From NCBI GenBank assembly GCA_947305775.1, contig CAMZEN010000003.1, forward strand, positions 24,410-88,409: 64,000 bases of DNA, read 5' to 3'. Source of the DNA: an uncultured Verrucomicrobiota bacterium (GTDB lineage Bacteria; Verrucomicrobiota; Kiritimatiellia; RFP12; UBA1067). The translations under genes were made by a program, and so were the position numbers. Position 1 is the stretch's first letter; every line of letters begins with the position of its first letter. Shown piece after piece: positions 1 through 52,974 of this stretch. Below the pieces are notes generated by a model. The model was not told where the DNA came from. It ran no database searches and saw nothing but the letters and a program-made list of their open reading frames with translations.

Positions 1-109
1 GTATCTCCGATGCCCTTTGTGCGGCCATTCGGCAACGCAACTTCAGGAAATACCGACGCGCTCGGCTGCGAAGAAGGCCGCGCGCCCGCGCTACAGATAC
101 AAGCCATAG
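1..109 (+). CDS. Zn-ribbon small protein, C-terminal fragment (5' end outside window; full copy at 32005..32250)
   Basis: Identical to 32142..32250. Contains the second CxxC (CPLCG) and a basic tail. Stop TAG at 107-109. Confidence 0.5.
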   Translation, partial: YLRCPLCGHSATQLQEIPTRSAAKKAARPRYRYKP

Positions 110-126
110 CGCCTTGCGGTTTGGTT

Positions 127-145
127 TTTTGTGGAATCCACAAAA
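127..145. promoter_or_regulatory. 19-nt perfect palindrome TTTTGTGGA-A-TCCACAAAA (hairpin or protein-binding site)
   Basis: Read directly. It lies 18 nt after the Zn-ribbon stop, in the only sizeable gap between the terminase and head genes. Confidence 0.4.
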
Positions 146-162
146 GAACACGCGCACCGCTG

Positions 163-190
163 TTGCAAGCACATTTTTCTGTGCTATGAT
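163..190 (+). promoter_or_regulatory. Candidate sigma70-type promoter for the head/tail operon
   Basis: TTGCAA (163-168), 16-nt spacer, TGcTATGAT extended -10 (182-190), about 38 nt upstream of the gpW-like ATG. Confidence 0.35.
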
Positions 191-227
191 GAAAGCGCAA
201 AGGCAAAAAAGGAGCTACATGTAAACC

Positions 228-491
228 ATGACACGCAAACAGGCAGAAACACGGCTAACGGAACTGCGCAACAAGCGTAATGCGCTTGTCGACCAGATTG
301 CCGATGTTGATGCGCAGTCCGGCAGCATCTCTGCCGCAGGTGGTTCGAAAAGCTACACAAACCGCAAGGTTGAAGAACTGCAACTGAAGTTGCGTATTCT
401 CGAACGCGAAATCGGGAAACTTGAGGCCGCTCTTGGCCTTCGCCCTGATTCACCGTCAGCAATCAAGACTATCTATCCGAGGTATCACTAA
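228..491 (+). CDS. gpW-like head-tail joining / head completion protein (87 aa)
   Basis: Small coiled-coil ORF placed between terminase and portal, as lambda W is. The core SYTNRKVEEL..LEREI resembles the gpW pattern as I recall it. TAATG overlap with the portal start. Confidence 0.45.
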   Translation: MTRKQAETRLTELRNKRNALVDQIADVDAQSGSISAAGGSKSYTNRKVEELQLKLRILEREIGKLEAALGLRPDSPSAIKTIYPRYH

Positions 492-2110
492 TGCGTTGGC
501 CCTTCTCAAAACCGAAAGTTGAACTGTCGTGGAGTTCTCTCTCTGCCGCACAGAAGAAGGCCGTTGCGCGCAAGCTCGCCGGTGCTGCGCTTGGGCTAGC
601 ACGCCGTGCGCATTTTGGCAAGGGCTTTGAAGTCGTAACATACCCGTATGCCAACGGGCGGCGCCCGACGTATGTCGAACGCGGCGGCGAAGATTCGCAG
701 ATATCGTCAACCGACCGCGCGAAGATCGTAAACGCGCACCGCGATATGATGCGCAATTCGCCAACGCGCATAACGCAAGATCAGCAGCTGCGCGTCAATG
801 TGGTTGGCTCATGCGGCGGGAAGATGTACGCATCATTCCCGCCGGAATACAAGGCGGCTGCCGACGAAGTGATGCACTACTTCAACCGGGTGTGGTTCAC
901 GCATGCCGAGTTCACCTTCCGCAAAAACTTCAATTGGATTCTGAAGACCGTTCTTACCGCGCAGGATGTCAACGGCAATGTTGTGCTTGTTTTCGATGAT
1001 GGCGAACTTACCGGTGGCAACGGAACGGGCCGCGTTCGCGGGTTCGAGGGCGATGAAATAGCCAACATTTCTGATGCGGCCTTTGCGCGCGCATTCCCTA
1101 AAGGATGGTGCCAGCGCGGCGGATTCATCTACAACGAAAGCGGCATGTTCGCCGGTTGCTTTGTTTCAACCCGCCACCGCGGATGCGAAGCGTTCCCGGA
1201 TGAAGCGGGGGCGTTCCACTGCCTGCGCCTTGATCCGTTCAACGATGGTGAAACGCCGAACTGGATTCTGCTTGGCGATATGCGCCGCTTCAATCAGGGC
1301 CGTGCCGTCTCGCCGCTCACGGCGGCGATTACGTGCCTGATTGACCTTCATGAAACGGTTGCCAGCGAAACGCAGGCGGCTAAGATGAATGCGCAGCTTG
1401 TCGGTCAGATTCTTTCCAATGCGTCCGCCGATGGCGATGCTGGCGAAGCACCGCAGGCGTTTGATGATGAAATCGAACGCGATACCGCCGCCAAGCCCGC
1501 CGAGGTAACGTTCTCCACGCGCGAACTTTCCGCTATCGGTGCGCACTTCGATCAGATGCCCGTTGGCATGAAGATTGATCTTCTTGATACCAAGCGGCCC
1601 AATGCCAACATACCCGCGTATATCGAATTTCTTACCGGGCTTGTCGGCGGCACCAAAGGCCTTGCGCGTGTCTACTCCACCCTGAAGGCGCAGACAAGCT
1701 ATACGGCGTTTCGCGGCGAGCAGGCCATGACCAAGCCTTCATTCGATGAAGCGAAAACCGATCTTGAACGCGAAGTGTGCGATTGGATTGCCGTATGCGT
1801 CATATCACGCGCCGTCAAGCTCGGCCTTGTGAAGTCCGCGCTTCCAGATGGCTGGCGCGATATGATTGCATGGCGTTGGCCTGAAATGCCGGAGGTCGAT
1901 CTTGTCAAGGCGGAAGATGCCCGCCGCAAGCGGCTCGAAAACGGCGTTACCTCTCTTGCGCGCGAACTGGGGCCCGGCGAACTTGAAAAGATCGTCGAGG
2001 AACGCAAGCGCGAAAAGCAGCTTTTTGAAGATGCGGGGCTTGACTATCCCGGCATGTCAGAAAACCAGGAAACAGAAACAACAACCGATGAAGGAGGCGA
2101 CGATGCCTAA
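491..2110 (+). CDS. Portal protein, lambda-B-like (539 aa)
   Basis: Size, position after terminase/gpW, an acidic C-terminal tail, and a QTSYTAFRGEQ segment resembling the lambda gpB ..MSYSTARAS.. region (from memory). Confidence 0.7.
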   Translation: MRWPFSKPKVELSWSSLSAAQKKAVARKLAGAALGLARRAHFGKGFEVVTYPYANGRRPTYVERGGEDSQISSTDRAKIVNAHRDMMRNSPTRITQDQQLRVNVVGSCGGKMYASFPPEYKAAADEVMHYFNRVWFTHAEFTFRKNFNWILKTVLTAQDVNGNVVLVFDDGELTGGNGTGRVRGFEGDEIANISDAAFARAFPKGWCQRGGFIYNESGMFAGCFVSTRHRGCEAFPDEAGAFHCLRLDPFNDGETPNWILLGDMRRFNQGRAVSPLTAAITCLIDLHETVASETQAAKMNAQLVGQILSNASADGDAGEAPQAFDDEIERDTAAKPAEVTFSTRELSAIGAHFDQMPVGMKIDLLDTKRPNANIPAYIEFLTGLVGGTKGLARVYSTLKAQTSYTAFRGEQAMTKPSFDEAKTDLEREVCDWIAVCVISRAVKLGLVKSALPDGWRDMIAWRWPEMPEVDLVKAEDARRKRLENGVTSLARELGPGELEKIVEERKREKQLFEDAGLDYPGMSENQETETTTDEGGDDA

Positions 2111-3320
2111 CAAGTTCAATCCGATGAAGGCGCGGCTTCGCGCCACTTTTGCCGCAGGCGCAACAAAGGAGCCGCGCCTGGAACGTGTCGACCGTGAAAA
2201 GGAGGTGCTGCATGGTGTCCAAATCACACTTGAAGGCGAAGCCAGGGGGCATGGCGTATGGCTTGACCGGGCCTTTTGCGAGGCCGTTGCCGAAGCGGGA
2301 AACGCTATGGGTGATGCCGGAGTCAAAGTCCGCTTTGGTCATCCCTCGATGTGTTCGGATGCGCTTGGCACCTACCTTGGAAGGGCTAAAAATTTCCGTG
2401 TCGTCGATCTAGAGCGCAAAGAGGCACCCGGCGAAAAGGTTGCTGGCGTTCTGGCCGATGTGTACATTGCCGCCGAATCGCATTCTGCGCCTTCCGGCGA
2501 TCTCGGCAAGTGGGTTCTTGATGCCGCCGAAAATTCGCCTGATACGTTCGGGCAGTCTATCGTTTTCACATACGCTGATTTGAAGTCCACCAACGCCGAT
2601 GGCGAACCGATCATGCGCAGCGAATATGAGGACGACCGCGCCTTCAATCGGGCGCGCGGCGAAAACAAGGTGTTTGCGGTCCTTGGCAAGCTTCGGGGCA
2701 CCGATTTCACCGACACGCCCGCCGCAACTGATGGCGTGTTTTCCGCTGGCGATCTTGCCGCTGAAGCGGAGGAAATGCTGGCGTCTCATCCGGCGGTGCT
2801 CTCCGCGATTGAAGGCAACCCCGAAAAGGTGATTGAGTTCCTTGATCGTGCCGGGCTGCTCTCGCTTATAGAAACGAAGCGGGTTGCCGGGCTTCAGGCC
2901 GCTAAGGACAAGCAGATTGCGGAACTGAACGAAATGCTTGCTGTCAGGGGCAAAGGCTTTGAGGAGGCCCTTGCCAAAGAGGCGGGGGCGCATCAGGCGG
3001 AAATCGCCGCGCTGAACGCCGAAATTGAAAGACTTAAAACCGGCAACGTCGAAACCACAAAGGCCCTTGATGCCGCCAACGCGGAAATCAAGCAGCTTAA
3101 GGAGGACGGCGAAAAGGCCGCAACGGCTCTTTCGGAAACGAAAGCGGCCCTGGCGGCTGAAACTGAACGCTACCGCAAGCAGGTCGGGCTTGCGCTGCAA
3201 CCCGCTGAGGAACTGCCGACCCTTCAGGAAGGGCTTGCGAAATGCAGCACGCCCGCTGAAAAGTCTGCGTTCATTGCAAGCGGCAAGTACAAAAAAGATG
3301 AAAAAGAAAGGAAATCTTAA
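2103..3320 (+). CDS. Putative prohead protease / scaffolding protein (405 aa)
   Basis: The start at ATG 2103 overlaps the portal stop by 8 nt. The C-terminal half is an A/E/K-rich coiled coil typical of scaffolds. It sits between portal and capsid. The track ORF start at 1866 lies inside the portal and was rejected. Confidence 0.5.
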   Translation: MPNKFNPMKARLRATFAAGATKEPRLERVDREKEVLHGVQITLEGEARGHGVWLDRAFCEAVAEAGNAMGDAGVKVRFGHPSMCSDALGTYLGRAKNFRVVDLERKEAPGEKVAGVLADVYIAAESHSAPSGDLGKWVLDAAENSPDTFGQSIVFTYADLKSTNADGEPIMRSEYEDDRAFNRARGENKVFAVLGKLRGTDFTDTPAATDGVFSAGDLAAEAEEMLASHPAVLSAIEGNPEKVIEFLDRAGLLSLIETKRVAGLQAAKDKQIAELNEMLAVRGKGFEEALAKEAGAHQAEIAALNAEIERLKTGNVETTKALDAANAEIKQLKEDGEKAATALSETKAALAAETERYRKQVGLALQPAEELPTLQEGLAKCSTPAEKSAFIASGKYKKDEKERKS

Positions 3321-3322
3321 AC

Positions 3323-4189
3323 ATGAGTTCTTCCCTTACTTCTCCCGGTCTTATCAAGGCCGCCAACGACGCACTTGTTGGGGCAACTCCTGATCTCAAT
3401 GTCGCGCGCCTTTTCGCGTTCGATATGAGTGATGAATTTGTCGAGCCCGGCACAACCGTCAAGGTGCCTGTTGCCGCCGCTGGCACCGTCAATGATTTCG
3501 ATGAGTCAACCAACGACTTCGAAAACAATGATGGCACTGTCGGTTATGCGGCCGTAACGCTTAACAAGCGGCCAAAGTCTACGTTCAAGTTCGCTGGAAA
3601 GGACAAGCTTGAAGCGCCGAATGCGCCCTATTGGGCGAAGGTCCGCGAGGCTTCCGCAAACGGCGTCAAGACTTCTATCTCCACGGCGCTTGGCGGGCTT
3701 TTCACCGCTGCCGCATGCACCGGCGGCAAGGTTGTGCTGGCGTCCGTCACAAAGGCAACAATCTCTGGACTTCGCGCCTCCTGCGAAGGACGCTGCGCTG
3801 ATACCGTGCTGGCGCTCGAGCCGGGCTACTACAACACGCTTCTTTCGCTTCTGGACGCCAATGTGCTTGGCACGCAGGATGCGATAAAGAACGGTTACAT
3901 TGGCGGCCTTTATGGCTTCAAGGCTGTCGTTCAGATGAACGACCTGCCTGCGGGCATAAAGGGTGCGCTTATCCCGGCAAGCTCCGTCGCCGTCGCCTCT
4001 CGCGCGTTCCCGGTTGCGGATGAAGCCGCATACAGCGAATACGGAACCGTAACCGATGAGTACGGCTTCACGCTGACGGTTCTCCGCCACGGTTCGCCTG
4101 CAAAGGGCACGGGCTTCATCAATGTGGTTGCCCTCTGGGGCGCCGCACTGGTGCAGGCAAGCAAGATCAAGTATCTTGCCGCATCGTAA
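3323..4189 (+). CDS. Major capsid protein (288 aa, putative)
   Basis: Follows the scaffold gene. Strong SD (aaagaaaggaaa). Followed by the strongest intrinsic terminator in the phage. Confidence 0.6.
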   Translation: MSSSLTSPGLIKAANDALVGATPDLNVARLFAFDMSDEFVEPGTTVKVPVAAAGTVNDFDESTNDFENNDGTVGYAAVTLNKRPKSTFKFAGKDKLEAPNAPYWAKVREASANGVKTSISTALGGLFTAAACTGGKVVLASVTKATISGLRASCEGRCADTVLALEPGYYNTLLSLLDANVLGTQDAIKNGYIGGLYGFKAVVQMNDLPAGIKGALIPASSVAVASRAFPVADEAAYSEYGTVTDEYGFTLTVLRHGSPAKGTGFINVVALWGAALVQASKIKYLAAS

Positions 4190-4196
4190 CCAATAC

Positions 4197-4233
4197 GGCC
4201 CGGCGGTCGGATTTTCGACCGCCGGGCCATTTT
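4197..4233 (+). terminator. Rho-independent terminator after the capsid gene
   Basis: 13-bp GC-rich stem GGCCCGGCGGTCG/CGACCGCCGGGCC with a 6-nt loop, followed by ATTTTCCC. Confidence 0.75.
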
Positions 4234-4264
4234 CCCAAAACCGAACCAAAAAGGAACCGCACAG

Positions 4265-4825
4265 ATGAAAAAGATTCTTGCCGTCACATTCGCCGCGTTC
4301 GTGTTCGCCGCGTTCGCCACAACCTCGATAACGCTTGCGCCGGGGTTGAACGTCCTTCCCGGATGGCATGCGGGCGGCGGCAAGGTTCTTGCCGTCGAGG
4401 CTGTTACGCAAAACGCAGCAGCAACCGTTGCGCTTTCTTCCGTGCGATCCGTCACGACCTACACCAATCAGCTTTTTGAAGTCGTCACGCCGCATGATCT
4501 GTATTCGTTCTCAATCACAAACTACGACGGCAATGCCGCGATATCCACCAATACGGTTGATGTATTCAGCTACTCCGACTGGATGCGTGGAACCACCAAC
4601 CTGATTGTTGGCGCGGTTACGCACACGCGATTTGCCGAAACGAACACAGTTGCAGCCGGACGCCTGCCGTCCACAACCTACACCGTTACGAATGCGCTTC
4701 TTTCCGTAACCACAAGCGGCCACTATGGAACCGCTACGCCTGAAAGCTCGAAGTTCGTTTTTGGCGGCGCAATCAACGTTAGCGGGGCAGCTGAGGATGA
4801 TGTGATAACGCTGATTGTTGAATAA
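4265..4825 (+). CDS. Signal-peptide-bearing beta-rich protein (186 aa), function unknown (decoration protein or moron)
   Basis: N-terminus MKKILAVTFAAFVFAAFATTS is Sec-signal-like. Has its own SD (aaaaggaac). Located after the capsid terminator. Confidence 0.5.
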   Translation: MKKILAVTFAAFVFAAFATTSITLAPGLNVLPGWHAGGGKVLAVEAVTQNAAATVALSSVRSVTTYTNQLFEVVTPHDLYSFSITNYDGNAAISTNTVDVFSYSDWMRGTTNLIVGAVTHTRFAETNTVAAGRLPSTTYTVTNALLSVTTSGHYGTATPESSKFVFGGAINVSGAAEDDVITLIVE

Positions 4826-4851
4826 CGCTTTAATAACCACCCCTGAAAAAA

Positions 4852-5190
4852 ATGAGCGATTTCTTCCATAACGCCGCCGCGATGCGCCCGATGATCGAAC
4901 CGGTCATGTGGCGTCAGGATAAAGCGCCGCACCGCAAAGGTGCGTTCGGCGCGGTCGTCCTGCATGGTGAATCGCAGAGCGAGACTGCGGGCGCGTCTCG
5001 CGGTGGATTCGCCGCCGATCCGTGGACGGTCATTGTGCCGGCGACGTCCGCGCTTTGCGCTGACGTCGCCGTCGGTGATACGCTTACGCGCCTTGGCGTC
5101 GATGGCGAAACCCTAACCGTCCAGCAGATCACGCGCGATGATACCGGCTGGACGCTCCGTTGCACTTCAGAAGAAAGGGCGCCGCGCTGA
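4852..5190 (+). CDS. Putative head-tail connector/adaptor protein (112 aa)
   Basis: Small ORF in the position of head completion genes. ATGA overlap with the next ORF. Confidence 0.35.
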   Translation: MSDFFHNAAAMRPMIEPVMWRQDKAPHRKGAFGAVVLHGESQSETAGASRGGFAADPWTVIVPATSALCADVAVGDTLTRLGVDGETLTVQQITRDDTGWTLRCTSEERAPR

Positions 5191-5813
5191 TGGGCTATTC
5201 GGTCACAGATACAGCCGTAATGTTTTCGCAGGGCCGGGGCCGTGCGAAGGTGTCGCTTGCGCTATCCTTCCGCGACCTCGAACGTTGGGCGAAGCGGCAG
5301 AAGATTGATACTGCAAAGCTCATGAAGCGCAGCTTTGGTCGCGCGTGTTTCGCGCTGAAGCGAAAGTTTCAAAAGGTCATATCGAACGCAGGCGGTGTTG
5401 AAGGCGTGCCGAAGTTCAAGGATTTCGAGGCCTTCACAAAGGAACTGCGCGCCGTCGAGGGCCGCACCACTCCGATGGGGGGCGTTCTCGCGGATGCAAG
5501 CCGCATTGTGTCGTTCAAAAAGAACGGCTGGCAAATGATCGGCTGGCCTGATGAACTCGCAGACTGGGCCGTGAACTTTCAGGATGGCGTTGGCGGTCCA
5601 AGCTCCGAGCGTTACTTCACCGATCCGGACTACCGCCACCTGATGCACAAGCGCGGCATACGCGAAATACCGCGCGAATATGTGCACAATCCGCGCCGTG
5701 TGATTCCGGAGCCGTTCGGCGCATATGTTGAACAGCATCTTGAAACCTGGGCGCGCGGCACGTTCTACAAGGAGCTTGCCAAGCAGATGATGAAAACAAA
5801 GGGGGCTGCATGA
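5190..5813 (+). CDS. Phage morphogenesis protein, unknown (207 aa)
   Basis: Start at ATG 5190 is translationally coupled (TGATG) to the upstream gene. Lies within the neck module. Confidence 0.4.
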   Translation: MGYSVTDTAVMFSQGRGRAKVSLALSFRDLERWAKRQKIDTAKLMKRSFGRACFALKRKFQKVISNAGGVEGVPKFKDFEAFTKELRAVEGRTTPMGGVLADASRIVSFKKNGWQMIGWPDELADWAVNFQDGVGGPSSERYFTDPDYRHLMHKRGIREIPREYVHNPRRVIPEPFGAYVEQHLETWARGTFYKELAKQMMKTKGAA

Positions 5814-6301
5814 TCTCACACCGCACTGTTATGGCGAACGCGGCGCGCGCCGTGTGCGATTCGGCGGAGGTCCGCGCTTATTGCCTTGCCAATTTCGGGC
5901 GGGGTCTCGCCGTCCATGTTGGCGCATATGGCGATGCCGTGCCGGGCGTCAAGCAGGCACCGTTCTTCTGGCTCACGCCGGTTGAAGAAAACGATGCTGT
6001 GAACGCCGACGAAACCTTCACCGTGCGCATGGTGCTTGGCGGATGCGTCAAGGGCCCTAATGGTGAACGGGTTATCAACAATGTGGTACAGGAACGCACC
6101 GAAACCGAAAACGGGCTTACCATAAACGGCGGCAACGCGATTGTGGAAGATTTGCGCGACATGATAATTCCCATTATCCGCAACGCCAAGGCCGGTGCGC
6201 GGATATCCGCGATCCGGCGCGAAGAAAACGACATTTCCCATTTCCCGTTGGAATGGGCCGTTATCTTTGTTGAATACTTTGAACCAGAATCACTCACCTG
6301 A
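5810..6301 (+). CDS. Putative neck / tail-completion protein (163 aa)
   Basis: ATGA overlap with the upstream ORF. Lies immediately before the tail tube gene. Confidence 0.35.
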   Translation: MISHRTVMANAARAVCDSAEVRAYCLANFGRGLAVHVGAYGDAVPGVKQAPFFWLTPVEENDAVNADETFTVRMVLGGCVKGPNGERVINNVVQERTETENGLTINGGNAIVEDLRDMIIPIIRNAKAGARISAIRREENDISHFPLEWAVIFVEYFEPESLT

Positions 6302-6318
6302 TACGAAAGGAAAAAAAC

Positions 6319-6735
6319 ATGAGCGAACCAACATTCAACCGCTGGGGTGTGAAGTCTGCAACTCTCACATTCAACAGCACAACCTATGAAATGGACGCAG
6401 GGCCTGCCGGTCAAAGCGAAACGCGCGAAGCGATAGAGGTGACCTCGCTTGCTGATACAATCAAGCGCTTCATCAAGGGTGCGCTTAAAGAAATTGATGA
6501 GTTCACCGTAACGCTTTACCAGAAGAGTTCCGGCAACCTCACTTCTGATGCCGCGCCCGCCGCGCTTGCGCTGTCGGTCACGCTCGAAAACGGCATTGAC
6601 TCCGACGCAACGGTCAGCGTTTCGATTGCCAAGGCGATTGTCACCAAGGTTGCCTATCCTAACCAAGAGGGTTCCGGCGAACGCAAGGCAACATATGATG
6701 TGACCTTCAAGCCGGACGGCTCTGTCTCCGCCTGA
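6319..6735 (+). CDS. Major tail tube protein (138 aa, putative)
   Basis: Strong SD (gaaaggaaaaaaac). Size and position directly upstream of the chaperone pair and tape measure. Confidence 0.55.
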   Translation: MSEPTFNRWGVKSATLTFNSTTYEMDAGPAGQSETREAIEVTSLADTIKRFIKGALKEIDEFTVTLYQKSSGNLTSDAAPAALALSVTLENGIDSDATVSVSIAKAIVTKVAYPNQEGSGERKATYDVTFKPDGSVSA

Positions 6736-6757
6736 TTCATGATGGGGGTTTGATTCT

Positions 6758-7057
6758 ATGGCGGCAAAACCTGAAATGTTTACCGATGTGGCAACGGTGC
6801 GCCTTGGCGAGGTGTCCGTCAAGGTGCGCCGCCTTACGATCAAGGAAATACGCGAAGCAGGCCTTTCGTTCAAGGGGGGCAAAGAATGCCTTGGCGATGA
6901 ATGCGAACGCTTGATCAAGGATCATGTAACGCTTGCGGACGGTTCGGACTTCGATCCGTCGCAACTGTCGATGCGGCAGATGCAGCGCCTTGTCACCGAG
7001 CTTGTTGGCGTTCCTGAAGGCGGCGGCATTTCGGATTTTATCGGGCTGCTATCCTGA
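6758..7057 (+). CDS. Tail assembly chaperone, gpG-like (99 aa)
   Basis: Acidic small ORF between the tail tube and tape measure genes. Followed by a 290-nt stretch open only in the -1 frame. Confidence 0.6.
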   Translation: MAAKPEMFTDVATVRLGEVSVKVRRLTIKEIREAGLSFKGGKECLGDECERLIKDHVTLADGSDFDPSQLSMRQMQRLVTELVGVPEGGGISDFIGLLS

Positions 7058-7350
7058 GCCGGGGGGATAGCGGCGAAACTGCAACGGCGGCTTTTCTGGA
7101 TGAAGGCGCGCGGACGCTTGGGGTTTGGCTCCCGCTTGCGCTCGCTGATATCTATGTTGCCGTTCTCGCGGGGGTACGGCCCTGGCTGAAGAACGGCGAA
7201 ACGATGAAGCTGCCGACACGGTCTGAAGCGGTCGGCAGCTGGTGCCTGCCGATGCTGTCAAAGTCTCTTGCCGCCGATGAAAAGGAACGTGAAGCGCTTG
7301 CGCTTTTCCGATCTGTCGAAGCTCTAAAGAAAAGGTATGAAAACGCATGA
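6758..7350 (+). CDS. gpGT-like -1 frameshift fusion product (predicted)
   Basis: The -1 frame is open from 7018 to TGA 7348-7350. The U-run GAUUUUA (7034-7040) lies in the 40-nt overlap. The extension stop overlaps the tape measure ATG (gcATGAgc). Confidence 0.5.
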
Positions 7351-8600
7351 GCAAATCAACGCACCAGGTTGCCGTCAAGGGTGTTGATCAGACGGCTAGC
7401 GCGTTCTCGTCCATTCAGGCGCGCGCCGCTGCCGCGTCCGCCAAGATGCGTTCGATGCTGGGCGGGGCCCTCGCCGCTGCCGGTGCATATCTTTCGCTTC
7501 GCGCCGTCAAGAGCGGCGTTGATGAACTTGGACGGCTTAGCGATGTGGCGCAGAAGGCGGGCGTTAGTGTTGATGAGCTAACGTCCGCAACGCAGGCGAT
7601 GGGCGTTCTTGGAATCGGCGCCAACATGGATCAGCTTGCCAAGTCGTTTCAACTGATGGAAAAGAACACGGGCCGCACCGGGCTTCAGGGCTTCTATGAT
7701 ACCGTTGGCGAACTTGGCAAGATTCCCGATGTCTCCGACCGTGCCGCTGCCGCCATGAAGGTCTTTGGCAAATCCGGCATGGAATTTATGCCGCTGATAG
7801 ATGCGGCCTATACATCGAACCTTGCCTTGCAGGATGTCGTCGAAGCGATGCCGCGCATTCCGCAAGCAGCCGCCGACGCGGGTGATGATGTCGCTGATGC
7901 AATGGGCAACATGGCAAGCGAGGCAAAGTCAATATGGCTTCAGGGTCTTGGCGCAATTTGCGGGTGGTTTTCCAAAAACTACGAGGGCGGTGTCCGCACC
8001 GCTTCGCTGAACGCAGGAAACCATTTGGCATATTACACGAAGATTGCCGTTGCAAAGTGCATAACGTACATCAAGAAGCTTAAAAGCGCATGGGACCTTT
8101 GGAGCGCTTCATGGTCGTATATCGGTGATGGTCTTGGCGCGATGTTCGGGGGCCGCACCTGGTCTGAGGCATGGGACTACGCGGCGCAGCAGTTTGAAAT
8201 CGCCACAAATGCCATAGGCGAAGAATGGGCCGAAATCGACCGCATCGAAGAAAACCGCACAAGCCGCTTTCAGCAGGATTTCGAAAACCGCGAAATTGCG
8301 ATAAAGAAATTTGCAAAGGCATATGATGCCGCTGCCGTCAGCATCAAGAAGCGTGAACTTGGCATGTCGGGCGGATCGGGCATGTTCGCGGGATCGGCGA
8401 AGTCTCCGCAGATTCGCAACGAGCTTGTGATGGGCGGCTCGAACGCTGCGTTGCGCACCGCCATGCTTGGCCCTCAGTGGCAAACGGAGGCGAAGAAGCA
8501 AACCGGCCTTCTTCAGAAGATTGCCGATGCCACCGCGAAGACCGCAAGCAACACCAAGGGCGTTGCAGCCGCTGAAAACTACATTGAGGAGAATGGCTGA
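7347..8600 (+). CDS. Tail tape measure protein (417 aa)
   Basis: A/G/M-rich helical protein with an N-terminal segment typical of tape measure proteins (..LGRLSDVAQKAGVSVDELTSATQAMGVLGI..). Position after G/GT. Confidence 0.7.
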   Translation: MSKSTHQVAVKGVDQTASAFSSIQARAAAASAKMRSMLGGALAAAGAYLSLRAVKSGVDELGRLSDVAQKAGVSVDELTSATQAMGVLGIGANMDQLAKSFQLMEKNTGRTGLQGFYDTVGELGKIPDVSDRAAAAMKVFGKSGMEFMPLIDAAYTSNLALQDVVEAMPRIPQAAADAGDDVADAMGNMASEAKSIWLQGLGAICGWFSKNYEGGVRTASLNAGNHLAYYTKIAVAKCITYIKKLKSAWDLWSASWSYIGDGLGAMFGGRTWSEAWDYAAQQFEIATNAIGEEWAEIDRIEENRTSRFQQDFENREIAIKKFAKAYDAAAVSIKKRELGMSGGSGMFAGSAKSPQIRNELVMGGSNAALRTAMLGPQWQTEAKKQTGLLQKIADATAKTASNTKGVAAAENYIEENG

Positions 8601-9559: not shown

Positions 9560-9569
9560 AAGGGAATCC

Positions 9570-10130: not shown

Positions 10131-10141
10131 AAGGTTAACCG

Positions 10142-12016: not shown

Positions 12017-12017
12017 A

Positions 12018-13415: not shown

Positions 13416-13431
13416 GAAAGGAAAAGGCAAA

Positions 13432-13854: not shown

Positions 13855-13893
13855 AGCTTGAAACCACAAACCACAAAAAAGAAAGGACAAAAC

Positions 13894-14472: not shown

Positions 14473-14474
14473 AA

Positions 14475-15404: not shown

Positions 15405-15415
15405 AGGGAAACACA

Positions 15416-38442: not shown

Positions 38443-38459
38443 TACGAAAGGAAAAAAAC

Positions 38460-38876: not shown

Positions 38877-38898
38877 TTCATGATGGGGGTTTGATTCT

Positions 38899-41700: not shown

Positions 41701-41710
41701 AAGGGAATCC

Positions 41711-42271: not shown

Positions 42272-42282
42272 AAGGTTAACCG

Positions 42283-44157: not shown

Positions 44158-44158
44158 A

Positions 44159-45272: not shown

Positions 45273-45556
45273 AGATACACGCAACCAAATCGAACGCTGG
45301 CGGCGAATCTACCGGCGGCAAGTTCCTGCGCGTTTTCGCTACCCTCGATGAAATACGCGAGCGGCTTGTAGTAATTGAAACGCGCGATGAAACGCAGCGC
45401 GCGGAGGTTGCGGAAATCAAGAAGCAACTTGGCGAAGTCCAGAAGATGTTGTATCAGATCATTGGCAAGGAGTCCGTTCGTTCGTCGATCTACGGCGTTG
45501 TTGGCGCAATCGTCGCAAGCGTCGTCACATGGATCATTTCGCTGTTTGGGAACTAA
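45269..45556 (+). CDS. Tail-anchored membrane protein (copy B)
   Basis: Identical to 13128..13415. Confidence 0.4.
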   Translation: MKIHATKSNAGGESTGGKFLRVFATLDEIRERLVVIETRDETQRAEVAEIKKQLGEVQKMLYQIIGKESVRSSIYGVVGAIVASVVTWIISLFGN

Positions 45557-45572
45557 GAAAGGAAAAGGCAAA

Positions 45573-45995
45573 ATGGAAGCTGGAAAGAACATATCAGAAC
45601 TTGTCGACCGTACACTTGAATACGGCTTGGGCGGCGTTGAAATCTTCGCCCAATTCCCTGCTGGCAGGATCGCAAAGGAATACAACGGCATTGGCCCGGA
45701 ATGGCTGCCGTCCGAGGAGCGCGATAAGATTACATCTTACCTCTCCATATTCGAACCGGCTGCGCTGATACATGATCTGCGCTTTGCAAAGTCTGATGGC
45801 AAGCGATTCGCGTTCAATTTCGCAAACATGGAGTTTCACGCAAACTGCATCAAGTGCGCCAAGGCGACTTATGGGCTATTGAACTGGCGGCGTTACCGCG
45901 CCTGTTTCGTCGCAGACCTGCTTTATCAGGCGGTAAAATGCGATTGGTGCTGGAAGCGCTGGCTTGAATGTGCGCCAAAAATTTCTTGTACTTGA
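45573..45995 (+). CDS. Cys-rich PLA2-like-motif protein (copy B)
   Basis: Identical to 13432..13854. Confidence 0.45.
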   Translation: MEAGKNISELVDRTLEYGLGGVEIFAQFPAGRIAKEYNGIGPEWLPSEERDKITSYLSIFEPAALIHDLRFAKSDGKRFAFNFANMEFHANCIKCAKATYGLLNWRRYRACFVADLLYQAVKCDWCWKRWLECAPKISCT

Positions 45996-46034
45996 AGCTT
46001 GAAACCACAAACCACAAAAAAGAAAGGACAAAAC

Positions 46035-46613
46035 ATGAAAGCAAAAACCAAAATCGCCGTTCTATTCGTCTGTATCGCTACCGCTTTGGTTCAAAGCGGA
46101 TGCAAAAGCCCAAGAAAAATGCGGGATATTGAGCTAAAGGGCATGTATGTCAACGGCTACAGTGAAGTTCTTGCCATAGGCGCTGGCCGGTTGACGTCCA
46201 TTCCCGGCGAACGTGAAGCGCTTGCGGCACATTACGAGGAAGATACGGCCTGGCTTTCGCCGTCCACCAAAACGCACAAGCTTGATATCTTCCTTGTCGG
46301 CACAAATTCCGTAGGAAGCTCCAAGGAGGTTATTGAGTCCGTCTGCCGAGCCTTCTCAGAAGTTGCGCCGGTCGTTTCTTCCAACAATGCTGCCGTTGCC
46401 AAGGGCGGTGTTACGGCATTCGATCTGCTGAAGGCGAACGCGGGAACGCGGCAGGCCGTGGAAACGGCGAAGCTTGCCGCGCAAAAGGCGTCGGCTGAAG
46501 CAACGGCGGCGGTGGCTAAGGCGGCTGCATCCGAAAAGGCTGCGCCACCGGAGGAGGGCTGCGCAGATTGCGTTGAAGGTGCCGCCGATTGCCCTGAATG
46601 CGAGGATAGGTAA
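46035..46613 (+). CDS. Lipoprotein (copy B)
   Basis: Identical to 13894..14472. Confidence 0.55.
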   Translation: MKAKTKIAVLFVCIATALVQSGCKSPRKMRDIELKGMYVNGYSEVLAIGAGRLTSIPGEREALAAHYEEDTAWLSPSTKTHKLDIFLVGTNSVGSSKEVIESVCRAFSEVAPVVSSNNAAVAKGGVTAFDLLKANAGTRQAVETAKLAAQKASAEATAAVAKAAASEKAAPPEEGCADCVEGAADCPECEDR

Positions 46614-46615
46614 AA

Positions 46616-47545
46616 ATGGCGCGCTACGTGTTGGGTGAGGCGGGGGCGCGAAAGTTCCGTGCGCTCTTGGCAAGCAGGTCGGGCAGCGGTCGCAGGCCTG
46701 GCGGCGTGCCCGGCGTCGTCGACTCGTCGTCGCTTCCGGCACCCTTCACGGTCAGGTATGCCGCTTCCGTCGGCGATGGCGGCGCGTGGATAGTGTGGCT
46801 GCCTGATGGCGCATGTTGCGTTATTGACGGCGGCGAAGTAGATTTGCGCACCGGCCTGGAGGCGGCTGGCGGCGATTATCCAGAAGGCTGGTATATCGTT
46901 GATGCGCTGTCAGACACGGGCGGCAATCTCGTCTTGAAGGTAACGCGCGATGATGGCGAAACCACCGCCGAATTTGCGCTTGCCGAAGAATCCGGCGAAG
47001 AATCGGCGGAGCATGCCTTCTCGGTTCCGGTTGCGGTTTGCAGTCGCAACACCACAACCGGCGAGGTACGAATCCAGCAGCTAGCCGATGGCGCCATTGT
47101 CGTTGGATGCGCTACCGACGGCGACTCCGTCGACTCGCAGGGTGGCGAAGGTGGCGCGGCGCTTCAGATTGCGCATTTTGCCGATGATGAACGCGATAGC
47201 GGCAAGGGGCTCGCCGTTAGGCTTAAGGCCGATGTTCAAACGGGCGAAATCACGGCGGAGTCAGATGATACACTGATGCTTATTGCCCGAAAGGACGGCA
47301 AGATCGTTTATGTGCCGCTTTCCGGTGATGGCGAGGATCCCGCCGAAGAATCTGATGATGCCGCCGATCCGTGCGGGCACCCTGGCGATCCGGCAAAGGG
47401 AGGCGGTGTGTCCGCCGACGATTCGTCCGGCGGCGGTGGCGGTGGTGGATGGGGCCCCGGCAGTGCTGGCGGCGTGCCCGCCACTGATTCGGCTGATGGT
47501 GGCGGCGGCACTCACAAGGGTGACGATAACTGCAATTGCAACTGA
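46616..47545 (+). CDS. Acidic Gly-run protein (copy B)
   Basis: Identical to 14475..15404. Confidence 0.45.
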   Translation: MARYVLGEAGARKFRALLASRSGSGRRPGGVPGVVDSSSLPAPFTVRYAASVGDGGAWIVWLPDGACCVIDGGEVDLRTGLEAAGGDYPEGWYIVDALSDTGGNLVLKVTRDDGETTAEFALAEESGEESAEHAFSVPVAVCSRNTTTGEVRIQQLADGAIVVGCATDGDSVDSQGGEGGAALQIAHFADDERDSGKGLAVRLKADVQTGEITAESDDTLMLIARKDGKIVYVPLSGDGEDPAEESDDAADPCGHPGDPAKGGGVSADDSSGGGGGGGWGPGSAGGVPATDSADGGGGTHKGDDNCNCN

Positions 47546-47556
47546 AGGGAAACACA

Positions 47557-49068
47557 ATGGCAAAATACAAACTCAAAGGTGCGCGTTTCCTGCGCAAGTA
47601 CACGGCAACGGCGGCGACGCCTGTTTATGCGGCGGCAACGGATGCTGAAAACGTCGTTGATTCGATGTGTGATGTACCGTGGGAATCGGCGGGCGCGGAT
47701 CAGGCGACAATGACTTCGCATTCCGATGATAAGGCAGATGGTGCCGAGAGAAGCGGCCTTGATCAGAATGTGATTGACCGCGACCTTTTTGATGCGGCGT
47801 TGTTCTGCGCGGGGCACTCCGGCGGCAAGCACCGCGCCTATGCGAATGCTGCTTGCTATCGCTACGAACTTCCGGCGGCTGCCATAGGCAAAACACTCAC
47901 GGAGCTTGCCGCCAAGGTAACAAGCGACCCGTACAACTCGAAGGGCGCGCGGCTTCACATTTTCACGAACTCGACCGGCGTTATCCCGATGAACTGCCAC
48001 ACGTTGCGCGGCGAAGATGCTTCAGGCGATGTGGTTGAAGATGGCACTACAGCCGCCGAGGTTGCGCCGCGCACGGTCGAAACGGTCAACCGCTCGGACT
48101 ACTGGTACCCAACCACCGAAACGGCTGCGCTTTCGCCAACCGGCGGCCTGGTGCTGCAAAAGTATCTTTTCCTTGTCGTGGCGCTCGAAAGCTACAGCAC
48201 CGTTCGCGGCAACTGGCTTGAGGGGTGCTCTTTCATAAAGAACGCTGTCGAAGTCACGCTTTCTGCTGCCGTGGATGGATGGGACGCCGACGCCGTCAAC
48301 GATGTTTCGGGCAGCGATAGCGCGGCGGAATATGCCGTTATGGTTGGCGGTGCCGTTCCTGAAGCAAGCGGCGAACAAAGCGCTGCGTTCCGCATCGTTC
48401 TTCAGCGGACGGGCGATGCCTTGCCGGATTCTGCAACGTCAACCGACGGGCTTTTCGATCCTGCCGCCTTGAAGACCTCTGCAACCGCTGCGCAGTCTGC
48501 AATCGGCTTGCGGCTCCTTTATGCTGCGCTCTTCGAAGGCCGCGTTTCTTCGATTGCGCCTGAAGCGTTCGCGGCCCGTCCTGGCGCGGCATTCTCCGTC
48601 GCGTCCACAACCGAAATGCGGCGCGCCAATCCGCTTGGGCTTGACGTCGCCGTGCCGGTGTGGAAGCTCACCGCGTCCGCGCTGCTTGTGCCGTTCGCAA
48701 CGCCGACAACGTTCAAGGCGCGGCGTGTTCGGCTCTCTTGGTCCGGCTTCACCGGATCGCCTACAGCGGGCATGAAATGGCGCGTATGGCTGAAGCGTGG
48801 CGCGGCGGCTTACACGGTGCCTGATGTCACGGCGCGAAAGCTCTACCTCACCGATGGCGGCGATGTCGAGGGGTTCCAGCTCGTTGGCGAAATCGCGGCG
48901 GATGGCGAGGCCACATCCGCAACGTTCACGGTTGCGCCGATAACGGATTGCCTTGCCACAATCATGGTGACTGGTTATGTCTCAATGGATGCGGTGAATC
49001 CGTCCGCTGATTCGGCGCTCTGGGGTTGCGCGGTGGAATTTAAGCCGGATATTTCCCTTTTGGGCTAA
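47557..49068 (+). CDS. Hypothetical late protein (copy B)
   Basis: Identical to 15416..16927. Confidence 0.45.
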   Translation: MAKYKLKGARFLRKYTATAATPVYAAATDAENVVDSMCDVPWESAGADQATMTSHSDDKADGAERSGLDQNVIDRDLFDAALFCAGHSGGKHRAYANAACYRYELPAAAIGKTLTELAAKVTSDPYNSKGARLHIFTNSTGVIPMNCHTLRGEDASGDVVEDGTTAAEVAPRTVETVNRSDYWYPTTETAALSPTGGLVLQKYLFLVVALESYSTVRGNWLEGCSFIKNAVEVTLSAAVDGWDADAVNDVSGSDSAAEYAVMVGGAVPEASGEQSAAFRIVLQRTGDALPDSATSTDGLFDPAALKTSATAAQSAIGLRLLYAALFEGRVSSIAPEAFAARPGAAFSVASTTEMRRANPLGLDVAVPVWKLTASALLVPFATPTTFKARRVRLSWSGFTGSPTAGMKWRVWLKRGAAAYTVPDVTARKLYLTDGGDVEGFQLVGEIAADGEATSATFTVAPITDCLATIMVTGYVSMDAVNPSADSALWGCAVEFKPDISLLG

Positions 49069-49088
49069 GCCTTCTTTGGAGTCTGAAC

Positions 49089-51737
49089 ATGAAAGCTGAA
49101 ACAATGATGAAACGAATGCTGGCCGCAACACTTGCGCTTGTGTCCGCAATTGCGGCGAACGCCGCCGAGGTGCGCTCCGTGCCGGTGCCTGTTTCCGTCT
49201 CGCGCGTCAACTGGCGCGGCAATGTGTCGCCGGTCGCACTATCCTTTCGCGCGCGCAAGATTGCCGCCACCAACGCCGTGCCCGTCGTGTGGGGCGACGC
49301 CGATCCGCGCGGGCGCTCCCTGTTTTCGGCTGTCACGCAGTCTTGGACGGTCAATACCGTGCGCGGGCTGCCTTATTCGGGCGAACTCGCGCCGTCCACC
49401 ATGCCGATGCCGGTTGGTGATTATGTGATTGAATGCTGGATGGATGAAAACGGCGACGGCAAGTTCAATCCGGGCGAAGTCTACGGTTGCGCCCGCTACA
49501 CGCTTCCGGCAACTGGGGATGTTTCGCGCGTTGAAATGGAAATTGCGGAAGTGTCGCCAAACTTCATGCGCGTTGATCTTGCAAAGGTTTTGGATGTGCA
49601 GCAAAGGTATGCGGGCGACCTTGAAGCCGGGCGAAACGAGGCGCTTCGCGCGGTGGATCGCGGCAAGTGGTGGGTTCCCTGGGCGCAGGTTGATGTAATA
49701 TCGTCACCAAACGCAACCAATCTTGCGTTTGGCGTTTCCGGCACTGTGCCCGCTTGGCTGGTTTGTCGCAGAATAGGAGCGGCGGCTTATTACAAGGTGC
49801 TTGCGTCGCTTGGCTCCTACCGGCTTGCGGATTCGCCGATCATCACCGAGGCCGATCTGCTTGCCGCCGGGATCGTTGAACCCTGCGCGGTGAGCGGTGG
49901 CGGTTCCTCAACAGCAGCAATTGTGGTGTTTGCCATTGTCGTTGGTTCGCCGCCTGCCGAAAATTCCGAAAATGGGAACTCGTATTTGATGCTTGAATGT
50001 CTGAATGGCCTTGGGAAGGGGCTGCCTATTGTGTCCCCTCAATGTGCTCGCGCGGTCGAAACCTATTCTGGCCGCGTTGTGTTTTCGTGGAATGATTTAA
50101 TGATGAACAAACTTAATGGTACGCTAGATCAGCCGAATTTCCTTCGTCCTGAACCGGCATATGCCGTTAAGGTTTGGGATACAAGCCCTGCAACAAATCT
50201 GGTGTATTCTTCTGGAGTGATTTCGCCGCCTCGTGATGCGGATGGTCTCTATCACTGGGTTGCGCCCGCCTCACTGCAATTAAATGCCAATTCGAATTAT
50301 GTCTGGCAGGTGTTCGAGGCTGATAGCAGCAATGAATGGGCGTCGTTCGCGCCTCGGCGCGATATATGGCAAGAGTCGTTCAAGTTGGCGGATGCACCCG
50401 AGTTTGTGCCGCCGATGCCGCTTGTCGCGCCGTTGACCGTGCCGGTTGCCGTCTCTCACGTCGAATGGCGCGAGACATGGGCACCAAAGCTGATGTTCGG
50501 CGCAAGCGCGGTTTCGTCTTATGGCGGCAGGCTGGTGACATGCGATCCTGCGTATTGGGAGCCAAGCGGGCTTTCGTCGCCGTTGGTGTCATGGGCGCTT
50601 CAGCCCATTTGCGGACTGCCATACGCGGGGGTTCTCTCCGCGCCTGAATCGCCAATGCCGATTGGTGATTACATGCTGGAATGCTATAATGATGAAAATG
50701 GTGATGGCAAGTTCAATCCCGGCGAGGCCTATGGTTGTGCAAAGTTCGCGCTTACGCCGTCCGGCGTCGTCGAGCGTGTAGAAATCGAATTGACCGAAAT
50801 ATCGCCTGTGTTTCCGCGCTTTGATTGGCAGGATATGTTTGCCATTCAAAGCGGATGGGCCGCGTCCACAAATGCCGCATATGCGGCGGCGTTCGCCGCA
50901 ACGGATCGTGGCGCGTGGGAAATGCCTTGGGCGGATGTGGAACGACCGGAATTTTACATCAGTACCAATGACTGCTGGCTTGCCGCGCATCCGGCAACGA
51001 ATCTGGATTTTGTAGCGTCGGGCAATGTTGGCGCATGGGTGGTGCTGCGCGACATTAATGGGGCTGCCATATACTCGCTTCTGAGGCCGTACATGGAGAC
51101 ACGTTCGGGATTCAAGGTATATCCGGCGCGTCGGTTTGGGTCAATGGATATTGCGGGGCGTCGAATCTTAACCGAGGCCGACTTTGTTGCCGCCGGTGAT
51201 TTGGATGTTGGCTGGGGGCTTTTGGGCGGTCGGTGGCAGGCTGTCGGCGGTTCGCGTGATGCAATAACGAACGCGACTTTTGTTGTCTTGCTTGGTGATA
51301 GGGCGCTTGAAGATGATTGGCCTGTGCATGTAGCGTATGACAATGGAATGCGTGACCGTTATGGCAAAAACGAAGCCAAGGCCGATCAGCTGATTGTCGC
51401 CGTGCGCAACAAGTATGAATATGGCAGCGCACCGACCGCCGTGTCCGATCTTGCTGTAACTAATGGCGTTGCTTCATGGTCGCATGCAAACACGATTGCC
51501 AAAGCATACCCGGCGGCGCAGGTCCGCATATGGTCCGATTCGGCAAAGACTTCACTTGTGTGGGATTCCGGCCCGATCAAGGCACCGGCGCGCGATTCGG
51601 GGGGCGTCTATCACTACAGGCTGCCGGGCTCGGCCCTGCCGCCTTCAGGCTCCACATGGTACATCGGTGTTTCGATGCTTGATGCCAAGTTCACCGAGCC
51701 TGCCGCCAACGAAACGGTTGCAGCCTTCACGCGCTAG
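49089..51737 (+). CDS. Secreted 882-aa duplicated calcium-loop protein (copy B)
   Basis: Identical to 16948..19596. Confidence 0.55.
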   Translation: MKAETMMKRMLAATLALVSAIAANAAEVRSVPVPVSVSRVNWRGNVSPVALSFRARKIAATNAVPVVWGDADPRGRSLFSAVTQSWTVNTVRGLPYSGELAPSTMPMPVGDYVIECWMDENGDGKFNPGEVYGCARYTLPATGDVSRVEMEIAEVSPNFMRVDLAKVLDVQQRYAGDLEAGRNEALRAVDRGKWWVPWAQVDVISSPNATNLAFGVSGTVPAWLVCRRIGAAAYYKVLASLGSYRLADSPIITEADLLAAGIVEPCAVSGGGSSTAAIVVFAIVVGSPPAENSENGNSYLMLECLNGLGKGLPIVSPQCARAVETYSGRVVFSWNDLMMNKLNGTLDQPNFLRPEPAYAVKVWDTSPATNLVYSSGVISPPRDADGLYHWVAPASLQLNANSNYVWQVFEADSSNEWASFAPRRDIWQESFKLADAPEFVPPMPLVAPLTVPVAVSHVEWRETWAPKLMFGASAVSSYGGRLVTCDPAYWEPSGLSSPLVSWALQPICGLPYAGVLSAPESPMPIGDYMLECYNDENGDGKFNPGEAYGCAKFALTPSGVVERVEIELTEISPVFPRFDWQDMFAIQSGWAASTNAAYAAAFAATDRGAWEMPWADVERPEFYISTNDCWLAAHPATNLDFVASGNVGAWVVLRDINGAAIYSLLRPYMETRSGFKVYPARRFGSMDIAGRRILTEADFVAAGDLDVGWGLLGGRWQAVGGSRDAITNATFVVLLGDRALEDDWPVHVAYDNGMRDRYGKNEAKADQLIVAVRNKYEYGSAPTAVSDLAVTNGVASWSHANTIAKAYPAAQVRIWSDSAKTSLVWDSGPIKAPARDSGGVYHYRLPGSALPPSGSTWYIGVSMLDAKFTEPAANETVAAFTR

Positions 51738-52819
51738 CGGGCCGCCGCTTCCATAGCCGCCTTGACTTCCGCAAGGTGCGCATCATGGTCGTAGCGCTCG
51801 GCGTTCTCGTCCGTCGTATGGCCGAGAATGCGCTTGCGTGTTTCGATGCCCGCGCCAGTTTCGGCAAGGCGCGTGGCGGCGGTGTGCCGCCAGCTGTGGA
51901 ACGTATAGCCTTCGTCAATGTCCGCTTCGTCCAGAACTTCGCGGAAGCTCAAAAGCGCCTGGACGGTCTTTCCGCGCATGCCGTAAAGATCGGCATGCAG
52001 CGGAAATAGGTACTCGCCTTTTCGCTTCAGGCCCGCAATAGCCTTCTTCACGGGTTCGATGATCGGCAGCGTCACCGCGATGCCGTAGCGTTTCGTTTTC
52101 GTCGGCTTCTTGTGGATAACGCCGCGCTGCAAGTCCACTTCATCCCATTTCATGCGGGCAATGTCGCCGTATCTGAGGCCGGTGTGCCGGGCTATGATGC
52201 AGATTGGTTCCCAATCCTTGCCGACCGTGCGCGCGGCGGAAATAATCGCTTCTTCCTGCTCTGGCGTGAACGCCGGTATGCGTTCGCCGTCGGTGTCGGT
52301 TGGCGCAAGCTTCGTCCAGGGGTTGCGTATGTCTGGCGAAGTCTTTTCAAGGAGCGCCCATATCGTAGCAAGGTGCCCAATGATGTTCTGGCGTGTTTTT
52401 GATTTGCGCCCGCTCTCGGCTAGCTCTTGCGCGTACTTGGCGGCGATTGCGCCGGTTACGGCTTCGACGGTGCGGATCGTTGCGGCCTTCTTCGCAACCC
52501 AATCGCAAAAGTTCCTGAAGATGTTGCGCCGGTCAGTGATTGTTCTGGTGGAAATGTTCAGCTTGCCGACAGCCTTTGCAAGTTCTTCGTACTTGGCCCA
52601 AGCCGCGTCCAGCGGCAGCATGCCTTCTACCGGCTTCTTGTAAAGCATCTTCAGTACGTTTACGGCCTGCTCGAACGTTGGCATGGTGCGCGCGGTCTTA
52701 ATGGCCTTCATCCATGCTTCTGCTTCGTTGAACTTTCGCGTATGCGTGGACTCGCGGTGCTTCACGCCGTCTGTGATGTATTCTATCCACCAGACTCTGC
52801 CGCGCTTATACAAGTGCAT
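51734..52819 (-). CDS. int: Tyrosine integrase (copy B)
   Basis: Identical to 19593..20678. Lies 133 nt from the tRNA 3' end. Confidence 0.9.
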   Translation of the reverse strand: MHLYKRGRVWWIEYITDGVKHRESTHTRKFNEAEAWMKAIKTARTMPTFEQAVNVLKMLYKKPVEGMLPLDAAWAKYEELAKAVGKLNISTRTITDRRNIFRNFCDWVAKKAATIRTVEAVTGAIAAKYAQELAESGRKSKTRQNIIGHLATIWALLEKTSPDIRNPWTKLAPTDTDGERIPAFTPEQEEAIISAARTVGKDWEPICIIARHTGLRYGDIARMKWDEVDLQRGVIHKKPTKTKRYGIAVTLPIIEPVKKAIAGLKRKGEYLFPLHADLYGMRGKTVQALLSFREVLDEADIDEGYTFHSWRHTAATRLAETGAGIETRKRILGHTTDENAERYDHDAHLAEVKAAMEAAAR

Positions 52820-52951
52820 CTGCGCACACTCCCTTCACGCGATTTGCGCCTGCTGCGGCGGTGCGGGGAAACTTCCGCCGCACACAGACCGCACACAGTT
52901 TCTGCAATGCACTTTGTGCGTTTGACCCAATGTTTTCAATGCTTTTCATAC

Positions 52952-52974
52952 TGGTCGGACTGGCGGGGATCGGA
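52952..52974. other. attR core (shared with 20811..20833)
   Basis: Phage/host divergence starts at 52975 (cccgcg..., the tRNA body), whereas copy A continues as tgtgtg... at 20834. Confidence 0.8.

Follow-up and report, generated by a model that had tools for sequence, protein, structure and literature searches.

A temperate phage in two head-to-tail copies at a tRNA-Lys gene on a contig of an uncultured Kiritimatiellia bacterium: plausibly a single active prophage read twice through its free DNA

The stretch of DNA analyzed here (hereafter the window; 64,000 nucleotides of contig CAMZEN010000003.1, assembly GCA_947305775.1) carries 1.65 visible copies of a prophage, arranged as direct repeats that recur every 32,141 bp and ending within the 3' end of a tRNA-Lys gene. 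The repeating unit has genes for an integrase, replication, a terminase, a portal, and a capsid and is on these grounds a complete temperate tailed phage; we assign its host to the uncultured rumen members of the class Kiritimatiellia. Our favored reading, to which we assign a probability of roughly 0.55, is that the second copy does not represent chromosomal DNA, and instead reflects the path of an assembler through excised or concatemeric phage DNA released by an active single prophage; a traversal of a loop in the assembly graph is, in our judgment, somewhat likelier than a true polylysogen. Tandem lysogeny has long been known, as has the possibility of an assembly artifact of this kind; what is new is a phage of Kiritimatiellia, remote from all deposited phages, for which the complete genome, the exact attachment (att) sites, and the host are available.

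A base-by-base comparison found positions 1–20833 of the window to be the same as positions 32142–52974 at every base (offset 32,141 bp, no N), so that the identity of the two segments claimed in the original prediction is borne out with zero mismatches across 20,833 bp. A perfect repeat of 20.8 kb cannot have arisen by chance. The first mismatch between the copies falls at 20834 in copy A and at 52975 in copy B, and identity collapses beyond these positions. The shared end of both copies reads ...GGCGGGGATCGGA (in its longer form, ...CTGGCGGGGATCGGA); past the break, copy A continues as TGTGTGAATAC... (longer, TGTGTGAATACTAAGCC) and copy B as CCCGCGACCCC... (longer, CCCGCGACCCCAAC).

The exact 23-mer TGGTCGGACTGGCGGGGATCGGA, which constitutes the att core, is present only at 20811 and 52952 within the window. 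At 20811–20833 it is flanked by phage DNA on both sides, and this inner joint consists of a phage arm, the 23-bp core, and a second phage arm, i.e., the sequence of an excised circle. At 52952–52974 the core connects phage DNA to the body of the tRNA, which makes this site attR. The core corresponds to the last 23 nt of tRNA-Lys and comprises the T-loop, the 3' strand of the T-stem, the 3' acceptor strand, and CCA; the tRNA-Lys gene is intact at attR because the phage supplies an identical 3' end. ARAGORN identified one tRNA in the whole window, an Rfam scan of the window gave this tRNA-Lys as its only match, and a tandem-repeat scan of the window returned merely two trivial short repeats. The end of the integrase gene lies 132 bp from the core.

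Unoccupied sites were reached through the 90%-identity protein cluster of the branching-type enzyme encoded to the right of the prophage, which has members on three other metagenome contigs (L014, L015, and L016). All three are ~98% identical to the right flank of the window, and two of them (L014 and L016) contain an intact tRNA-Lys gene in the matching chromosomal neighborhood without the phage. On the far side of the tRNA, L014 and L016 encode a GFO/IDH/MocA-family oxidoreductase, followed by ABC-transporter and glycosyltransferase genes. In the orientation of the window, the empty site reads ...GCAGATTTGCAA, then the core TGGTCGGACTGGCGGGGATCGGA, then CCCGCGACC..., and the phage side of the core reads ...GCTTTTCATAC followed by TGGTCGGACTGGCGGGGATCGGA; comparison of the empty-site sequences (attB of L014 and L016) with the phage-side sequence fixes the core at exactly 23 bp. 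Set against the empty attB of the same species, the inner joint is of the attP type and the array ends at attR in the tRNA gene, and both assignments made in the original prediction are thereby confirmed. In its testable features (direct copies at the genome period, a regenerated attP, and attR), the two-copy topology equals that of a Campbell-type tandem lysogen.

The proteins of the window are recorded on one contig of 104,373 bp. The eight genes immediately left of attB in L014 (9,768 bp) were looked up by protein cluster, and seven of the eight clusters include a protein from a contig whose length is exactly 104,373 bp; for the eighth, a permease, none is on that contig among the 15 of 57 members listed. 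Two of the left-flank members on the 104,373-bp contig were compared, and these are ~99% identical to the corresponding L014 proteins. For two left-flank ABC-transporter proteins, the 90%-identity clusters contain NCBI entries from metagenome-assembled genomes of Kiritimatiellae/Kiritimatiellia, which places the host in that class. Therefore, the source contig holds the left chromosomal flank (~9.8 kb) as well, and attL would be present on it outside the window. About 11.3 kb of copy A was originally placed to the left of base 1; this figure is right, and the attL core is expected at -11330 to -11308. For n copies, the length of the array is 23 + n × 32,141 bp. With two copies, 40,068 bp remain for the flanks, which accommodates the at least 11,026 bp needed on the right and the at least 9,768 bp needed on the left. 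The right flank seen in the window takes 11,026 bp, more than the 7,927 bp that three copies would spare, and three copies are impossible. By this arithmetic the contig holds exactly two prophage copies, and copy A would be complete; the earlier suggestion that there might be more than two copies does not hold, since three cannot fit in 104,373 bp. A contig starting inside the phage is likewise excluded. The product truncated by base 64000 is absent from the protein collection, in which other truncated products are stored, and this suggests that the contig continues to the right of the window. The truncated product at base 1 is also absent from the collection, which is uninformative, as the full 115-amino-acid (aa) open reading frame (ORF) is not a called gene either.

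With an attP joint on the contig, joined-end phage DNA was therefore present, whether by excision, replication, or tandem integration; molecules with phage ends joined through the core existed in the sample as real DNA. In the reading that we favor, the 32,141-bp temperate tailed phage integrates by means of its tyrosine integrase into the 3' end of tRNA-Lys(UUU) via the 23-bp core, and the active prophage would give rise to excised circular or concatemeric DNA as the most probable source of the attP joint. This joint would add a back-edge to the assembly graph, leading from the right end of the phage to its left end. In a graph with k > 23, two edges would lead into the phage body, one from the left flank (attL) and one from its own end (attP), and two would lead out of it, one toward the right flank (attR) and one back into the phage. 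The shortest walk over every edge would then run through flank, phage, phage, and flank, giving two necessarily base-identical copies in the contig order attL, phage, attP, phage, attR. The attP joint and the complete gene set suggest that the prophage is functional, and it could be active given that the integrase, replication, terminase, portal, and capsid genes appear intact.

Joined ends are also seen among relatives of the phage. Two of these (L017, a contig of 31,359 bp, and L018, a unitig-based Logan contig of 22,203 bp) come from other rumen metagenomes and share 70–74% identity in the primase-like protein; both read from tail genes through a minus-strand integrase gene and the attP region into early genes, without host DNA. 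Joined-end (free, replicating, or packaged) forms of the family are therefore common in bulk metagenomes. The position of the core in these relatives corresponds to the 3' ends of other tRNAs (TGGTGGAGGTGAGGGGAGTCGAACC at L017 6736–6760; TGGTGCTCGGGGCGGGACTCGAACC at L018 7268–7292), and the family as a whole therefore uses tRNA 3' ends for integration; it appears to have changed from one tRNA to another with no change in its att-integrase layout. A more distant relative (L021, on a 111.6-kb contig) shows an ordinary left prophage end directly beside host genes.

Four considerations, none of them decisive, incline us toward a traversal of the loop. Exactly two copies are what a single traversal would leave; joined-end forms of the family are demonstrably frequent (L017 and L018); a perfect direct repeat of 32 kb is unstable in recombination-proficient cells and would not be expected as the consensus of a natural population; and the flank is nearly indel-free against the short-read-type contigs L014 and L016 (no net gap over 7.9 kb of right-flank alignment to L014, and a 10-bp net length difference over 6.6 kb to L016), with nothing that signals raw long reads. 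In addition, the independent Logan assemblies record nine of nine checked phage proteins versus seven of 12 host-flank proteins (one-sided Fisher p = 0.04), the five missing host proteins being five of the seven longest that were checked (386–668 aa); this hints weakly that the underlying reads cover the phage region better than the chromosome, or vary less within it. The original prediction had offered either a (poly)lysogen or concatemeric DNA mis-joined to the chromosome. Its anatomy stands, and of its two explanations we judge the mis-join somewhat likelier, because two perfect copies correspond to a single traversal of the attP back-edge.

Several points weigh against this choice. Its main rival is a genuine head-to-tail double lysogen at tRNA-Lys on one chromosome (attL, phage, attP, phage, attR), which we regard as a possible explanation, tentatively held. 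A true double lysogen predicts exactly the same sequence, which offers nothing to tell it from a graph loop. The base identity of the copies and the copy number of a single traversal are both found here, and are necessary, not sufficient, since a real recent dilysogen has both. A true dilysogen also predicts extra phage coverage, by about two-fold, and the coverage hint does not separate the two. The loop-traversal step is an inference: some path-extending assemblers (e.g., SPAdes) may resolve short loops by one traversal or by coverage. Unitig-only assemblers would never emit such a contig, so the argument depends on the assembler. A search of the literature gave no usable account that spells out how prophages form loops in assembly graphs. 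In the laboratory, tandem lysogens arise readily, and they are under-detected in short-read genomes, in which assemblers normally collapse the copies. Circles yield the same product as a tandem, and therefore polymerase chain reaction (PCR) with outward primers cannot by itself separate the readings.

A dilysogen could have formed when the integrase (Int) inserted a second circle at attL or attR, when a dimeric circle integrated, when Int/Xis exchanged attL with attR between sister chromosomes, or when an incoming circle entered the prophage by homologous recombination. The contig as deposited does show the Campbell-type structure with exactly two copies, and that these are perfectly identical is in keeping with a recent event. 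The head module resembles that of lambda (terminase, 87-aa gene, lambda-family portal, and capsid) and is compatible with cos packaging; if packaging is of the cos type, the interval between packaging sites (from left of the window to ~29.3 kb, spanning attP) would amount to a complete genome, which could be packaged from the chromosome without excision. Lambda dilysogens with this structure are standard (PMC4669245), and natural tandem prophages at one attB are known in Mycobacterium abscessus (PMC9934374) and in Shiga toxin-producing Escherichia coli (STEC; PMC8112680). However, these described natural cases are different phages at one site and not identical copies, and the joined-end free forms that are demonstrably common for this phage family in rumen metagenomes also count against a dilysogen. 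Finished genomes have seldom been reported to carry a tailed prophage in identical tandem copies. That a natural double lysogen of a previously unknown phage dominates the population, with its copies bracketing an attP-spanning genome packageable without excision, seems to us improbable. Far less credible still is a segmental duplication or rearrangement unrelated to phage integration (RecA-dependent unequal crossing-over, or a chimeric contig join): tandem duplications of tens of kb occur in bacteria, and the length of the 23-bp core is close to the lower limit for homologous recombination, but the period is one full phage genome and the relatives share the joint of integrase gene, tRNA 3' end, and early genes. 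We rejected this explanation because the joint falls exactly at the 23-bp att core beside the integrase gene.

A perfect two-copy prophage in a metagenome-derived contig is by itself no evidence of polylysogeny, and contigs of this type will be scored wrongly by databases that tally prophages, gene dosage, or "concatemers". The analysis provides a Kiritimatiellia phage with a complete genome, exactly located att sites, and an assigned host. A real and stable tandem would offer a natural setting in which to study excision-independent packaging, already known in lambda; if the double lysogen were population-dominant, it would be a tailed-phage counterpart of the CTXφ strategy.

The coordinates of the phage and host features are given in Table 1. 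Phage genes were annotated by PHROG and Pfam searches (PF00589 cut-off, 27.1 bits).

Table 1. Features of the 64,000-nucleotide window, in window coordinates.
Feature	Position	Strand	Basis or remark
Prophage copy A, right-hand 20,833 bp (portal, tail genes, integrase, core)	1..20833	+	Identity to 32142..52974; other 11,307 bp left of window
Prophage copy B, one complete 32,141-bp unit, from attP joint to end of attR core	20834..52974	+	
Tyrosine integrase, copy A, 361 aa	19593..20678	-	Identical to 51734..52819
att core TGGTCGGACTGGCGGGGATCGGA, inner attP-type junction	20811..20833		Integrase-side arm left, early-gene-side arm right
152-aa protein, hydrophobic N-terminus, first gene across attP	20866..21324	-	Called gene; no PHROG/Pfam match
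Small early genes, no known family	21496..23658	+	ORFs
683-aa replication-type protein, P-loop motif GKMRSGKS	23661..25712	+	Distant relatives with primase/helicase domains
ParB N-terminal-domain protein, 466 aa	26462..27862	+	phrog_6218, E 2.3e-19; PF02195
N6/N4 DNA methyltransferase, 478 aa	27914..29350	+	phrog_498, E 4e-107; PF01555
155-aa ORF, possible small terminase by position only	29287..29754	+	Directly upstream of large terminase; no family match
Large terminase subunit, 753 aa, copy B	29760..32021	+	phrog_38, E 5.4e-23; copy A gene left of window
87-aa gene	32369..32632	+	ORF, called gene
Lambda-family portal	32632..34251	+	phrog_21; PF05136, 67.6 bits; copy A at 491..2110
Coiled-coil protein	34007..35461 (as listed)	+	Overlaps portal gene; true start probably later
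Major head protein	35464..36330	+	phrog_283, E 9.8e-13; copy A at 3323..4189
Late genes, ~15 kb, presumed head completion/tail/lysis	36406..51737 (= 4265-19596)	+	Nearly all without family match
Small XhlA/hemolysin-like ORF	45269..45556		
Tyrosine integrase, copy B, 361 aa	51734..52819	-	phrog_1, E 2.6e-44; PF00589, 77.9 bits
att core at attR, last 23 nt of tRNA-Lys	52952..52974		Empty-site contig alignments stop exactly at 52952
tRNA-Lys(UUU)	52952..53027	-	ARAGORN; Rfam RF00005, 67.2 bits
Right chromosomal flank: glycogen-branching-type enzyme, Ham1 NTPase, radical-SAM MiaB-like protein, RecO, PrsA-type isomerase	53050..64000		Pfam

All genes of the unit are on the plus strand except those for the integrase and the 152-aa protein. 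The last late gene (882 aa) and the integrase gene are convergent, with stop codons that overlap by 4 bp (19593–19596 and 51734–51737), and there is therefore no space for a terminator between the late operon and the integrase gene. Short direct repeats surround the attP core at 20678–20687, 20737–20757, and 20929–20938: CCGCACACAG occurs twice, 11 bp apart, in the integrase-side arm, and TCTGCGCACA occurs once in each arm. These repeats are candidate arm-type binding sites for the integrase, with the proviso that two-copy 10-mers can be chance.

In the early region, relatives of the 683-aa protein (P0058, P0063, and P0065) carry PF13155, PF08707, or PF09250, and one of them is named "putative DNA primase/helicase". 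The N-terminus of the methyltransferase also matches ParB-like profiles, and this enzyme forms with the ParB N-terminal-domain protein a pair (26462–29350) just upstream of the terminase genes; the order from ParB to terminase is kept in the relatives L019, L021, L022, and L023. The 115-aa arginine-rich ORF that spans the start of the window (1–224) and, in copy B, the terminase stop codon (32018–32365) is not a called gene, and the ~350-bp stretch between the terminase gene and the 87-aa gene may be non-coding. The large terminase of the window has no Pfam match, and its homolog in the relative L023 has a faint match to GpA_nuclease. With this match, a portal of the lambda family, and genes in the order terminase, small gene, portal, coiled-coil protein, capsid, lambda-like cos packaging is plausible, though unproven; no cos site was identified. 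PHROG and Pfam searches returned almost no matches for the early genes and the tail half of the unit. Late-module proteins of 624, 510, and 882 aa have essentially no PHROG or Pfam matches, and the proteins of this module are all singletons in the 90% clusters of a collection of 15 billion proteins; the tail module of this Kiritimatiellia phage is uncharted.

No phage is known to have been isolated on any of the Kiritimatiellia. A Megablast search with 25 kb of the present phage against 50,697 deposited GenBank phages gave no nucleotide match, and the terminase and the integrase are at most 27% and 28% identical, respectively, to any deposited phage protein. In IMG/VR, a scan for close relatives found at most 27% identity except for one short match of 88 residues (35%). 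A scan of the GTDB representative genomes gave a single relative, with 62% terminase identity (L001; CAVFWS010000023.1). This 19.4-kb contig belongs to a metagenome-assembled genome labelled Clostridium sp. CAG:138, of a phylum different from that of the Kiritimatiellia host, and either mis-binning or a true relationship across phyla could account for it. Dozens of relatives share 45–79% identity with the primase-like protein, and those traced come from ruminant-type metagenomes; a scan of JGI metagenomes found nothing for this protein. No second instance of exactly this phage, with which copy number could be compared, was found among the GTDB representatives, IMG/VR, or the JGI metagenomes.

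The closest structural parallel to a tandem of this form is the lambda dilysogen, in which the order is gal, attL, cos, attP, cos, attR and the cos-to-cos segment is packaged directly from the chromosome (PMC4669245). The array described here likewise has two direct copies, a regenerated attP between them, and a tyrosine integrase, and its outer sites would likewise be hybrid, attR being visible and attL expected beyond the window. It differs in that its att site is a tRNA 3' end, its host is an uncultured member of Kiritimatiellia, and the phage is unrelated to lambda in sequence; moreover, lambda dilysogens have been verified genetically, whereas the present tandem is known from contig sequence alone. 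The att site of lambda is the intergenic gal-bio region. In M. abscessus, the tandem prophages prophiT36-2a/b occupy one attB and were formed by Int acting at attL or attR (PMC9934374), and STEC prophage clusters are natural tandem prophages at one attB that arise by Int acting on attL or attR (PMC8112680). Integrase-mediated accretion at a tRNA-type attB, which leaves a hybrid junction between neighboring prophages, would be common to these pairs and to a real tandem of the phage described here, although the M. abscessus and STEC pairs consist of two different phages with an attR/attL hybrid as the inner joint, whereas the copies in the window are base-identical.

Head-to-tail repetition of the same prophage at one site is also shared with CTXφ/RS1 of Vibrio cholerae, whose arrays at one site provide inter-copy junctions that template progeny genomes. 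CTXφ is a filamentous single-stranded DNA phage that is integrated by the host XerCD recombinases and does not excise, and for it the tandem is functionally required. Unlike in CTXφ, nothing here suggests that a tandem is required, and the distant relative L021 is an ordinary single prophage at its left end. CheckV describes assemblers as occasionally concatenating multiple copies of a genome, a class recognized by a "large duplicated region" or a k-mer frequency above 1 (PMC8116208). As in such concatenated viral contigs, one genome is repeated here with perfect identity in a metagenome contig; contigs of that class are mostly free circular genomes, whereas here there is a chromosomal anchor at attR, which is visible, and at attL, which is expected beyond the window, and at least one integrated copy is therefore real. 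With respect to the target site, mycobacteriophage Ms6 is reported to have its attB in the T-loop of tRNA-Ala (PMC1762012). The two phages are alike in that the core matches a tRNA from its T-loop to its 3' end and the gene is restored by the phage; they differ in the tRNA used (tRNA-Lys in the present case) and in their integrases, which are only distantly related.

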